Source: Eledone cirrhosa
Lineage: Eukaryota
Direction: 5' to 3'
Assembly: GCA_964016885.1 (NCBI GenBank)
Contig: OZ024743.1
Coordinates: forward strand, 146,816,001 to 146,880,000
DNA length: 64,000 nucleotides
The notes under the pieces are model-generated. The model was not told the origin of the DNA and ran no database searches. It was given only the letters and a program-made list of their open reading frames with translations. A program made the position numbers and the translations under genes. This document shows, in pieces, positions 19,233 through 53,372 of this stretch (positions are counted from its first letter, which is position 1; every line of letters begins with the position of its first letter).

Positions 19233-19653
19233 AAATGTATTCGTGAGTGAATAATAATAATAATATTATTATTATTCATTTTTTTTTGGCAAGCAAACAG
19301 CCTCATAACACGTGTGTTTTCTAGACAACTGGCGTCATCCTTTTGTTCCAGTGGTAACAGAGAGGAAACAGTCTACAATTGTTTCAGAGTTATTGCCCTT
19401 TATCAAGACTGTGTATTCTCTCATCACTGCTACCCACTGTAATAGTTTCAGCAGGTAGCAGTGACGAGAGAATACGCAGTCTTGATAAAGGGCAACAATT
19501 GTAGTAAAATGTTTCCTCTTTGCTATCACTGGAACAAAACGATGATGCCAGTCATCTAGAAAACACACGTGTTATGAGGCTGTTTGCTTGCAAATGAAGG
19601 AAATATTAATAATATTATTATAATATTATTAATATTCATTCACAAATACATTT
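19233..19653. mobile_element. ~420-bp non-coding palindromic element made of two head-to-head HHR-bearing arms
   Basis: Arms are reverse-complementary from AAATGTATTCGTGAGTGAATA to TATTCATTCACAAATACATTT, with a short loop near 19435-19453. Confidence 0.85.
19369..19411 (-). ncRNA. Minimal type-I hammerhead ribozyme, U3-A8 core variant
   Basis: Minus strand reads CAGTC-TTGATAA-AGGG CAATAA CTCT-GAAAC AATT GTA-GACTG. Helix I is CAGTC/GACTG, helix III is the palindrome ACAATTGT, and the cleavage triplet is GUA. Confidence 0.78.
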
Positions 19654-19868
19654 CTACTGTTATCAGGCCATAAATGAAAGTAATTTGAAATTAATATTAT
19701 TTTATCTGTTGACTGAATGTTTCTTCAGATATTCCTCTGAAACACTTAACCCCTCTGTGACCAAATTTCTAGAAATACCGTGCTCGCATTTTTCAGTTAA
19801 TGTTTTAAATAATTGAGAATTTGAAAGGTTTTAGGAAAATAACTAAATATCATTATGAATCTATGAAG

Positions 19869-20192
19869 GGTGGTGGATTGGCAGTATCGGTGGAGGGTCG
19901 GACGCCATGCTTTCCAGCATAGTTACGTCCCTTTACGATCTGAGTTCAAATCCCGCCGAGGTTGACTTTGCCTTTCATCCTTGCGGGGTCGATAAAATAA
20001 AGTACCAGTAATGCACTGGGTAATTGCTGGCCTTGTGCCTAAAGTAGAAACAATTATGAATCTATGATCTGAGTTCAAATCCCACCGAGGTTAACTTTGC
20101 CTTTCATCCATACGGGGTAGATAAAATAAAGTACCAGTAATGTACTGGGTAATTGCTGGCCTTGTGCCAAAAGTAGAAACAATTATGAATCT
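19869..20192 (+). mobile_element. SINE family A, full copy plus tandem 3' partial copy
   Basis: Full unit at 19869-20062. A second unit restarts at GATCTGAGTTCAAATCCC (~20066) and ends with the same AATTATGAATCTA. Confidence 0.88.
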
Positions 20193-20347
20193 AGTATTTA
20201 AAATACAACTTAACAAAATGTTCTTACCAACATGTATAATAAAAGGTTTACTTTTACTAATGAACACATTAAAACAGATACTGACCTTAGGTAGGTACAT
20301 ACCAAAATGCTTAAACAATACATTTTGCAGTTGTTATTGCAATTATT

Positions 20348-50247: not shown

Positions 50248-52202
50248 TATCATCATCATCATCATCATCAACGTTTAACGTCCGTGTTCCACGCTTGCAT
50301 GGGTTTGGACGGGGGTAGTACCACTTGAGGCAAGAGTGATTGTCTTGCTCGCATAGGACTGTCTGGCAGGTTTTCTACAGTTGGATGCCCTTCCTAACAC
50401 CAACCACATTTACAGTGTGGGTCTGGGAGGTTTTTACCGTGTTGCCTACACGGCCACATTACAGCGTGGACTGTGTGTTTTTTTTGTCGTGACACCTACA
50501 CGATCTCATTTGTTTCGGCCTGGATGGCGCGGCACCAACATAACTTTACATAGAACGGGGTGGTGTGGATGGGGTGGGGGTGGTGGTGGTGGGACGGGGT
50601 GTATTTTGTTAGAGATGCCTACTGGCTGGAGTAGGTTTTACTATATATTTAGGTAAGGCGGGTCTTCTCTGTTACTGAGTACCGCCAAAGGTCTCGGTCC
50701 AGTGACATTGTCTTGGAGAGGTGTAAGTGTGTGAGGTCGGAGTTTATCAGCTCGTCCCAGGTTTTTCTAGGTCTGCCTATTCCGTGACTACCGTCTATCT
50801 TTATTGCCCTGCACTTTGTTATACAGCTATCGACTTTCATGCACATCACGTGTCCATACCAACGTAGCCTTCTCTCGAGTAAACAACATCTGATCCCTCT
50901 TATCTCTAATTTTTTCCTTAGTTCGTTTATGCTTTGCCGTTCACGTATATTACTGTTACACATCCAGCGGAGCATGCAAGCTTCATTCCTCTCTAGTCTG
51001 CGTATATCCTCTGCACACAATGCCCAGGTCTCACTGCCATGCAGCATTGCTGTTCGTATGCAGGCATCGTACAACCTGCCTTTCATTTTTAGGGAGAACC
51101 CTTTAGCAGCTAATAGTGGTATAAGCTCTCTGAACTTTTTCCAACCAGTTCTGACTCTAGCTACAGTACTTTCAGAGCACCCTCCCCCACTGCTGATTTT
51201 ATCGCCCAGGTAACGGAAGCTGTCCACTATTTCTATAGAACCCTCTGCGCAATTGAAAGAGCTAGTATTTTGTGGGCACTTGCTGCTACTTATTGCACCA
51301 GAACACCGGCCACATGTAAAATCTATGTTCTTAGTTAGCTTACCTGTGATCCCACTACATCTTTTATGCACCCATACTTTGCATTTAGGACATAAAATGG
51401 AGTTTCTACCTACGCCTTTCCTACTCACCGAGCACGACCATTTCCCAGAAGGGACCGCCGCCTTGTTTTCTTTCCTACAAGCTAGAACTTTGGTCTTAGC
51501 CAGGTTAATTTTAAGTCCTTTTGACTCTAGGCCGTGCTTCCATGTTTGGAATTTCTTCTCTAGCTCGGCCATTGATTCCGCTATGAGTGTCAGGTCGTCT
51601 GCGTATAGGAGTTCCCATGGGCAGCCTGTCTTGAACTCCTCTGTTATAGCCTGAAGGGCAATAATAAATAGTAGGGGGCTGAGAACAGAGCCCTGATGGA
51701 CGCCAACTTTTACGCTAAACTCTTCACAATATTCGTTGTTAATTCTAACCTTGCTGACTGTTTCTTTATACATGGCTTGTATAGCCCTCACAAGCCATTC
51801 GTCAACGCCTAGTTTTCTAAGAGCCCACCAGATAATGGAGCGGGGGACTCTGTCGAAGGCTTTCTCCAAGTCGACAAAAGCTAAGTAGAGGGGTTTACCT
51901 TTAGCTAGGTACTTCTCCTGTAGTTGTCGTACAATGAAAAGAGCGTCTGTGGTACTTTTGCCTGACACAAACCCGAACTGCATTTCATCTAGGTCAATTC
52001 TCTCTCTGATTAGTTGCGCTATTACTTTTTCCGTGACCTTCATGACCTGGTCGATTAATTTAATGCCTCTATAGTTACTCCTATCTAGGGCGTCTCCTTT
52101 ACCCTTGTAACAGTTAACGATGATGCTGCTATGCCAGTCCTTCGGAACAACCCCATTCTGTACGACTTGGTTAACTATGCGGGTGACCATGGTGTGTCCC
52201 AT
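50248..52202 (-). mobile_element. Young RTE LINE, 5'-truncated
   Basis: Open RT ORF, 3' UTR and (ATG)n tail. Candidate TSD ATCTAT at 50245-50250 and 52201-52206. Confidence 0.95.
50649..52202 (-). CDS. RTE reverse transcriptase (N-terminally truncated, 517 aa open)
   Basis: NYRGIKL, FVDLEKAFDRVPR, HQGSVLSPLLF and LYADDL, plus a Cys-rich insert (C..CKVWVHKRC...CGRC) after the RT core. Confidence 0.88.
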   Translation of the reverse strand: MGHTMVTRIVNQVVQNGVVPKDWHSSIIVNCYKGKGDALDRSNYRGIKLIDQVMKVTEKVIAQLIRERIDLDEMQFGFVSGKSTTDALFIVRQLQEKYLAKGKPLYLAFVDLEKAFDRVPRSIIWWALRKLGVDEWLVRAIQAMYKETVSKVRINNEYCEEFSVKVGVHQGSVLSPLLFIIALQAITEEFKTGCPWELLYADDLTLIAESMAELEKKFQTWKHGLESKGLKINLAKTKVLACRKENKAAVPSGKWSCSVSRKGVGRNSILCPKCKVWVHKRCSGITGKLTKNIDFTCGRCSGAISSSKCPQNTSSFNCAEGSIEIVDSFRYLGDKISSGGGCSESTVARVRTGWKKFRELIPLLAAKGFSLKMKGRLYDACIRTAMLHGSETWALCAEDIRRLERNEACMLRWMCNSNIRERQSINELRKKLEIRGIRCCLLERRLRWYGHVMCMKVDSCITKCRAIKIDGSHGIGRPRKTWDELINSDLTHLHLSKTMSLDRDLWRYSVTEKTRLT

Positions 52203-53260
52203 CTATTATATAATTTGAAACAAGTTAATTATTTCTTTGCATTCCGGTAGCAAGTAATGATCCAAAGAGCAGTACCAGTCCACGACCTGGTGGTTGAGGA
52301 CTCTAAGAATTAAAGTAATGGACTGTTGACCATCATTTTATGGTATCATAATCATGATGAGCTTCATAGTAAGTTTCTCCAATTTTATCACGTCAGTATG
52401 AAGTAATCAGAATGAAAGAACATACTTAGTAAGTCAGTTACAGTTCCAGTTCAAAAAATATCAATTAGTAGTATGGAAAATATGCAGTTATAGAAAAGCA
52501 GCAAAACATCTCAGATTATTTTCATATTCTTCAGCTAGGTGCAAAGTAACTCTTTGTTGAGAATGTGAGGTAGCCTCTGCATATTCTGGTCATATAACCT
52601 GCTAGATATAGCAACAAATCTCTCCCAAATATGGGTTACCTTGAGCGAATCCTCTGACAGGTTGATACACAATAAATATTTGTTATATGTAAACAAAACT
52701 CCCTCTTATTTTTCTATTATATATATATATATTGAATACCTTTTTTAAAATTATATATCTATATCTATGTATGTATATATATATAAATATATATATATAT
52801 ATAAATATATATATATATATATATATATATATATACATGGGTGTGTATGATTGTGTATAGAAGATTATATTAATAAAAGGAATTCCAACTTTGTCTGATT
52901 TACTTGTTTTATTTACAATGCTTTAAAATGATAATGATATTATAATGAAATAGTATGGTAGAATATTAAATATTAAGTGTTAATTGAACAAATACTTTCA
53001 TGCTTTCGCAATCTTCAGGTTCATATTCTGTGGTGACAGTCAAGTTTGCAATTTTCAACTGTCATATATATATATATATATATATATATATATATATATA
53101 TATATATATATATATATATATATATATATATATATATATATATATATATATATATATATATACACATATATATATATATATAATTATAGGTAGATTTCCG
53201 ACGGGGATCAGGAGATGCTCACATTAAAAAAAGGTACACAATATGTTGGTGGGGTATAGG

Positions 53261-53372
53261 GCTTTTACAGGAGTAGAACTGTTTCATTTGTATGAAATCA
53301 TAAGGTATATCCTGAGGATTTCATATGAATGAACCAGTTCTAGTCCTGCAGAAGTCATTTCTATATAAAATT
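53261..53372. repeat. Short inverted repeat of HHR-like termini (same family as 24181-24305)
   Basis: CAGGAGTAGAACTGTTTCATTTGTATGAAATC / GATTTCATATGAATGAACCAGTTCTAGTCCTG. CTGAGGA at 53312. Shares TCTAGTCCTG.AGAAG.CATTTCTATATAAAATT with 24271-24304. Confidence 0.6.

Follow-up and report, generated by a model that had tools for sequence, protein, structure and literature searches.

Hammerhead-bearing palindromes in the Eledone cirrhosa genome are very probably insertion stubs of Penelope-like elements

We analysed 64,000 nucleotides of the Eledone cirrhosa genome (assembly GCA_964016885.1, contig OZ024743.1, positions 146,816,001 to 146,880,000 of the forward strand; hereafter the window, whose own numbering is used throughout), a stretch dense in LINE-like (long interspersed nuclear element) frames and microsatellites, in which four short inverted repeats with hammerhead-like arms had been noticed from the letters alone. 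All four lie where that sequence-only reading had put them: self-BLAST of the window recovered 19233-19653 (element 1), 24179-24308 (element 2) and 46162-46533 (element 3), and comparison with natural copies placed the two arms of element 4 at 53261-53305 and 53310-53372. The boundaries first drawn missed one-sided tails, which extend element 1 from ~19191, element 2 to ~24372 and element 3 from ~46106; element 4 has no tail and its left arm is shortened. Predicted hairpin energies are -262, -71, -197 and -54 kcal/mol for elements 1 to 4, and the predicted folds suggest that the palindromes would form long double-stranded RNA if transcribed. Rfam microRNA (miRNA) matches over them scored far below gathering and were rejected.

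The repeats fall into three dispersed families without cross-hits, in line with the earlier count of at least three unrelated ones. Elements 2 and 4 are two subtypes (A1 and A2) of family A, element 3 belongs to family B and element 1 to family C. First-look searches of the 3.0-Gb genome gave 3028 candidates for A, 5277 for B and 1290 for C, figures which are not copy numbers. In each search the best 40 candidates were scored and 30 fetched (the loci numbered L below), so that all family counts given here are samples. Penelope-like elements (PLEs) of families P and Q, which lie in the window, and of family D, met just outside it, served as controls (Table 1).

With natural copies as references, families A, B and C all hold a type I hammerhead that reads outwards. 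Among copies elsewhere in the genome, all 12 core positions were intact in 30 of 55 arms of A, 22 of 53 of B and 15 of 29 of C, and the helices were mostly 80-100% paired. By a strict descriptor an intact hammerhead was present in one of the eight window arms (element 1, left); the right arm of element 2 kept its core and lost the 5′ strand of helix I, and the other six carry core mutations or deletions. That each element bears a hammerhead or hammerhead-like core holds as a property of the families. Over the whole window the strict descriptor gave 8 matches, compared with 0.33 on average for 30 shuffled sequences; a 466-bp tandem array accounts for 5 of them. Rfam hammerheads were confined to this array, below the gathering score.

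Each family has its own ribozyme form. Family B has a hammerhead of the minimal PLE kind: one base is added after A9, stem II measures 6 bp and stem III 2 bp. The family C hammerhead combines a U3-A8 core with a long helix I and a stem III that is palindromic. In family A, stem III has 4 bp and stem II 3 bp, the latter closed by U-U in 53 of 55 arms; in helix I of this family, one compensatory pair distinguishes A1 from A2 (4 + 4 matches, 2 others; a single event). The U-U form of stem II recurs in the two coding PLE families of the window, P and Q, and the hammerhead-like motif of P has U4A besides. A descriptor must allow U-U at stem II and a long stem III loop, otherwise A, P and Q are missed; hammerheads with U-U at 10.1-11.1 (in P also U4A) would escape standard descriptors. 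The U3-A8 core (here C and D) and the extra base after A9 (here B) are also described in the text of PMC4209133 for Schistosoma mansoni, which calls G10.1-C11.1 highly conserved, in contrast to the U-U of A, P and Q. Folded as single strands, seven hammerheads had no clear advantage over shuffled sequences (z -1.5 to +1.06), though one copy each of A (L093) and D (L316) is predicted to fold as a three-way junction. A tRNA origin of family A, raised by a B-box-like word in its stem III loop, was dropped on one mismatch and the lack of an A box. Three further single hammerhead motifs lie at 240-285 (+), 52985-53018 (-) and ~40510-40550 (-), in other repeat families that occur in other loci as well.

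Each family has two fixed points at which its arms end, separated by ~73 nt in A, ~59 nt in B and ~35 nt in C, and the arms pass there into (AT)n; a dinucleotide run adjoins 32 of 68 ends in A and 29 of 36 in B. No target-site duplication was discernible, 2 of 52 elements having a candidate, microsatellite-like in both cases. Adjacent inverted arms stood head-to-head rather than tail-to-tail in ratios of 46:1 (A), 25:0 (B) and 13:0 (C), counts that include the window copies and loci chosen by palindromic queries. In loci chosen otherwise, family A gave 15 against 1 (30 arm-selected loci) and was head-to-head in 6 of 8 tail-selected loci and in 6 bystander pairs. The outward orientation was thus non-random, as the sequence-only reading had proposed. 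One arm was long and the other short in 34 of 46 A pairs and 18 of 25 B pairs. The centres of family A are not the same from copy to copy and lie either way round with respect to the tail, which indicates that the arms are probably joined anew at each insertion. In all 30 typed A pairs both arms were of the same subtype (16 pairs were untyped). Junctions at the cleavage site showed no apparent enrichment by inspection: one was seen in an A pair (L096), and another near the site in the window array.

We then sought the parents of these units. For family B, a pattern for copies running past the tail gave ten loci, two of which had a continuation in common. This continuation is the start of a reading frame that opens inside the terminal repeat and takes in reverse transcriptase (RT) motifs and a GIY-YIG domain before the following repeat is reached at a distance of 3.9 kb; in locus L184 the frame is flanked by a terminal repeat on either side, the period being 3.9 kb, and parent frames were found at L161, L184, L186 and L173. 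As the B tail continues into an RT/GIY-YIG frame bounded by repeats, element 3 consists of two copies of a coding PLE's end. In this frame the RT is preceded by a long low-complexity stretch rich in Asn/Thr/Gln (L167, L180-L186), which resembles the N-rich inserts of rotifer Penelope in the passages of PMC3846280.

[quoted passage not shown] They are short, palindromic and numerous, and a TA duplication could hide in the TA runs that flank them. Against this, a one-sided tail makes the two ends unequal, the centre differs among copies, arms often occur singly, complete hammerheads with all three helices are conserved and B passes into a coding frame. This reading is largely refuted and we give it hardly any weight; the earlier view, MITE-like in appearance yet without fixed terminal inverted repeats, is borne out.

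Family C proved to be a circularly permuted coding-free unit of ~335-355 nt: all seven loci that ran past its tail re-entered the unit upstream of the hammerhead, and C templates were longer than one unit. Two complete hammerheads in one copy were found in none of 30 junction-selected loci. A 46-55-nt piece of family C has been amplified as a local minisatellite (L083 / L245), and a repeat which we take to be SINE-like (short interspersed nuclear element) was inserted recurrently at one AAT-rich spot of the C arms (L069, L070, L073, L079, L085 and others). Family A showed no shared sequence 5′ of helix I in 29 arm-selected or 8 tail-selected loci, and no shared continuation past its tail in 8 of 8 tail-end loci, a limited sampling that leaves room for a rare parent. 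A parent of A was sought by the tail-end pattern, among divergent PLE frames in the fetched loci and via family D, and none was found; A is probably a coding-free unit of ~140 nt. The proposal of extremely truncated or non-autonomous PLE retro-insertions was upheld in these forms, B as a truncated coding PLE, and C and probably A as the coding-free cases.

The control families yielded the same kind of product. Family P is young and extremely abundant (83,884 candidates), with many open frames of 713 aa in which inspection shows an RWK-like motif (RWR for RWK), DKT, a CxCX5C linker, and CxxC and CxH around E and N. These motifs and the (TA)n target are those given for the Hydra clade in the passages of PMC8557442, to which family P putatively belongs. 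Its pairs were head-to-head in 30 cases and tail-to-tail in none, 19 of the 30 combining a long and a short arm, and hammerhead-centred mini-palindromes were among them. Arms of a pair had 71 variants in common against 18.7 expected, and in one pair the arms were 99.9% identical over 926 nt, compared with a mean of 96.2%. Arm starts fell at -14..0 from the core in 17 of 30 cases; after 8 query-favoured loci were dropped, 9 of 22 fell at -14..-3, none at -15..-99 and 13 at -100 or beyond. A further P copy lies at ~53490-54420 of the window. Family Q has an inverted terminal arm of ~490 bp and, on both arms, a hammerhead with U-U at the stem II base. Family D, which comes from the end of another Hydra-like coding PLE (L316), was first met ~2 kb to the right of the window (L163:1998-2190). 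Among its copies (L294-L323), 25 of 29 were palindromes and there was one tail-to-tail neighbour; the arms break off within the long hairpin that forms stem II of a U3-A8 hammerhead, and 29 of 29 are without the core. The hammerhead core is hence not required for palindrome formation. A and D tails have a word in common (16 of 17 bases; L163:2125-2141), possibly a shared recognition signal.

The claimed polarity of the neighbouring elements held for the 466-bp array, and also for the second coding PLE at ~25025-27298, but not for the Penelope element at 38167-40348, whose inverted arm is tail-only and without a hammerhead. 'Recurrent class' was overstated, what recurs being an ordinary two-armed PLE product that arises equally from coding families and from the core-less family D. 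A related alternative is that whole palindromes propagate themselves, with read-through transcripts of palindromic copies as templates, which would amount to a new non-autonomous class. Family A never reaching 5′ of helix I would fit, as would one A2 centre that was found again in five tailed copies; most A centres are nevertheless unique and in both orientations relative to the tail, about half of the arm-selected A copies have no partner, and coding families leave identical stubs. We regard this alternative as improbable.

Fixed outer ends, variable junctions, (AT)n flanks, outward hammerheads, the coding B parent and the stubs of P and D together identify the palindromes as PLE products, and we hold with high confidence that they are PLE insertion stubs, not MITEs.

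The 466-bp hammerhead array of the window contains five intact hammerhead motifs and ends ~100 bases beyond the window, in (AT)n. Its family is dispersed and very young, with copies 99-100% identical (L275-L293). By our count, 15 of 18 sites were two-armed and head-to-head, and none was tail-to-tail; 11 of the 15 paired a long with a short arm, the ends lying in (AT)n near +333 and +260 and the tail measuring ~70 nt. Junctions fall anywhere in the unit, and other sites hold arrays of many units, more than 25 at one of them. This family and family C resemble the animal non-LTR (long terminal repeat) retrozymes in the passages of PMC7229834 and Li et al. 2026 (bioRxiv 10.64898/2026.07.22.740005), which carry type I hammerheads in tandem or permuted units that are a few hundred bases long and coding-free. 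Against a retrozyme unit of ~150-450 bp, the C unit fits and the 466-nt array unit lies slightly above; unlike retrozymes, C had no copy with two complete hammerheads in the 30 loci. Both papers, in these passages, draw the PLE link from co-occurrence and terminal-repeat homology, whereas here the insertions themselves show a pair of arms, two ends that are fixed and (AT)n as the target.

Table 1. Palindrome arms, hammerhead array and control elements in the window (window numbering)
Feature	Position	Strand	Remarks
Element 1 (family C), long arm, ~35-nt tail	19191..19442	-	only intact hammerhead among the four elements
Type I hammerhead of element 1, U3-A8 core variant	19368..19412	-	6-bp proximal helix I, palindromic stem III; predicted cut ~19374
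Element 1 (family C), short arm	19444..19653	+	GAAA box deleted
Element 2 (family A, subtype A1), short arm	24179..24243	-	G8 changed, stem III deleted
Element 2 (A1), long arm, ~70-nt tail into (AT)n	24243..24372	+	core intact; helix I 5′ strand lost at junction
Control: decayed coding PLE, family Q	25025..27298	-	long tailed arm 26804 to ~25025; inverted arm 26805-27298
Control: 5′-truncated coding PLE, family P, Hydra-like motifs	38167..40348	-	short 3′ end at 38167; tail-only inverted arm 40277-40348
Control: single 70-nt family P stub	41212..41281	+	starts at hammerhead core
Element 3 (family B), long arm, ~57-nt tail = parent PLE reading frame start	46106..46316	-	3-nt core deletion
Element 3 (family B), short arm, end in (AT)n	46319..46533	+	A9 and G12 changed
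Element 4 (family A, subtype A2), shortened left arm	53261..53305	-	G5 changed
Element 4 (A2), short arm, end in (AT)n	53310..53372	+	A15.1 and U16.1 changed
466-bp hammerhead tandem array	61861..64000	.	two arms diverging from 63324: 3.1 units on -, 1.7 on +

Elsewhere in the window, inspection shows LINE-like RT frames of several kinds (861-1982, 4192-6387, 43656-45807, 50649-52202 and 57044-59922). A 51-bp minisatellite of 45 copies with strong GC skew occupies 8098-10399, and two weak local palindromes without a hammerhead motif lie at 7065-7160 and 21265-21306.

How could one PLE insertion produce two such arms? The explanation we favour as a whole, and consider probable, is insertion of the PLE 3′ end as two truncated copies head-to-head in an AT microsatellite via twin priming; that twin priming was the main route seems to us somewhat likely. 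The PLE enzyme would nick both target strands in the microsatellite, and two short cDNAs would be primed on uncleaved RNA. The two outer ends may correspond to the pair of internal sites at which the anole PLE starts RT in vitro, and both cDNAs would be copied from the same RNA or source. The RT would tend to stop at ribozyme helices, that is at the helix I start in A and P and in the stem II hairpin in D, and such stops may be the reason why many products are tiny and ribozyme-centred; the helix I hot spot could reflect either the RNA 5′ end or an RT stall. Both cDNA ends would then be joined and filled in. The PLE machinery would carry family A, family C and the 466-bp array along as passengers that are coding-free. 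Twin priming predicts one long and one short outward arm, each truncated independently, as was seen, and the shared arm variants of P and the subtype-concordant A pairs suggest that the arms come from a common source.

Alternatively, with the same PLE origin, the second arm could arise by fold-back self-priming of one cDNA or from an antisense template. Fold-back has been proposed for rotifer Penelope (in the passages of PMC3846280); many A centres are tiny hairpins, D centres lie in the natural stem II hairpin, and arms have variants in common, so that it may explain part of the copies, for instance the hairpin-centred ones. In 10 of 18 B pairs and 6 of 34 A pairs (in A by a few bases), nonetheless, it is the arm lacking the tail that extends further 5′, and four P insertions (L121, L124, L202 and one in L222) have a tail-only arm with 0-6 nt of overlap with the other arm. 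Since a fold-back copy cannot contain sequence that is missing from the first arm, simple fold-back fails for such pairs, and we judge this rival unlikely as a general account.

Several observations weigh against PLE insertion by twin priming or against parts of it. The fetched samples lean towards copies that most resemble the query. On the protein side, Pfam gave zero matches on the family P frames and none on the RT pieces of the B parent, recognised as RT by motif inspection, and the B GIY-YIG domain (PF01541, E 1.6e-4) scored 22.3 bits, just under the Pfam cut-off of 22.6; neither a parent nor a transcript was found for A or C, whose mobiliser is a presumed one. The arm pattern has its exceptions: C was long and short in only 2 of 13 pairs, many of its arms being interrupted by later insertions, and A had 5 short+short and 4 long+long pairs. 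Tails measured 35-88 nt, compared with 30-40 bp in published cases. Arm-to-arm identity exceeded background only slightly in A (0.898 vs 0.872) and B (0.886 vs 0.869) and was below it in C (0.822 vs 0.833, n=10), and most rare variants in A, B and C were confined to one arm. The signal of a common source is thus weak in the old A and B copies and absent in C, and gene conversion between arms could be the source of shared variants.

The ends and arms of these insertions agree with what the consulted passages of the literature describe. PMC8557442 reports PLE insertions as an inverted 5′-truncated copy with an optional tail and a microsatellite bias, PMC3846280 (Arkhipova 2013) gives head-to-head as the commonest PLE arrangement, and PMC8969392 and PMC2377424 are consistent with this pattern. 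Endonuclease-positive (EN+) PLE insertions (PMC3846280; Craig 2021, PMC8557442, Fig. 2) are alike in having head-to-head arms, a tail at one end, a hammerhead in the terminal repeat and a microsatellite target without a clear target-site duplication; they differ in that arms here are only 60-250 nt and tails 35-88 nt, and that no coding parent was found for two of three families. Dual minimal hammerheads of S. mansoni, on opposite strands ~100-700 bp apart, were ascribed to truncated PLEs (Cervera and de la Pena 2014, PMC4209133), in a text whose passages do not treat polarity, ends or mechanism. In vitro, the anole PLE PAc (Frangieh 2024, PMC11167929) cut and extended both strands of AT-rich DNA, used uncleaved RNA and started RT at two internal sites bounding the tail; inverted products and stop sites, which we describe here, are absent from the passages concerned. 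Our literature search, supplements aside, gave nothing on families A-C, on U10.1 hammerheads or on two-armed retrozyme insertions; PLE hammerheads are listed in the supplements of PMC4209133 and PMC8557442, where the U-U variant may be included.

The two-armed architecture itself is already published, in the passages of PMC3846280, PMC4209133 and PMC8557442, and the two-armed stubs are this known PLE by-product, likely built afresh at each insertion, and not a new kind of element; they are probably dead ends. What we add is evidence from the genome that favours twin priming rather than fold-back, hot spots at ribozyme helices where arms stop, marks of PLE insertion on a repeat resembling retrozymes and the U-U stem II variant of the hammerhead. 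For annotation, thousands of such stubs would be taken for MITEs or miRNA hairpins. The findings also bear on how PLEs form inverted structures, a question left open in the passages of PMC8557442 and PMC11167929, and on what mobilises animal retrozymes: PLEs are named as candidates in PMC7229834 (Cervera and de la Pena 2020), which leaves the matter open, as does Li et al. 2026 for the mechanism, again in the passages concerned. We see about an even chance that coding-free hammerhead RNAs, from the ~140-nt A through the ~350-nt C to the 466-nt retrozyme, are all PLE-inserted via twin priming, with ribozyme helices setting the RT stops and joins. Family A would define a minimal cis unit, and, if coding-free RNAs are indeed inserted by PLEs, these insertions would be direct genomic evidence for the movement of animal retrozymes.

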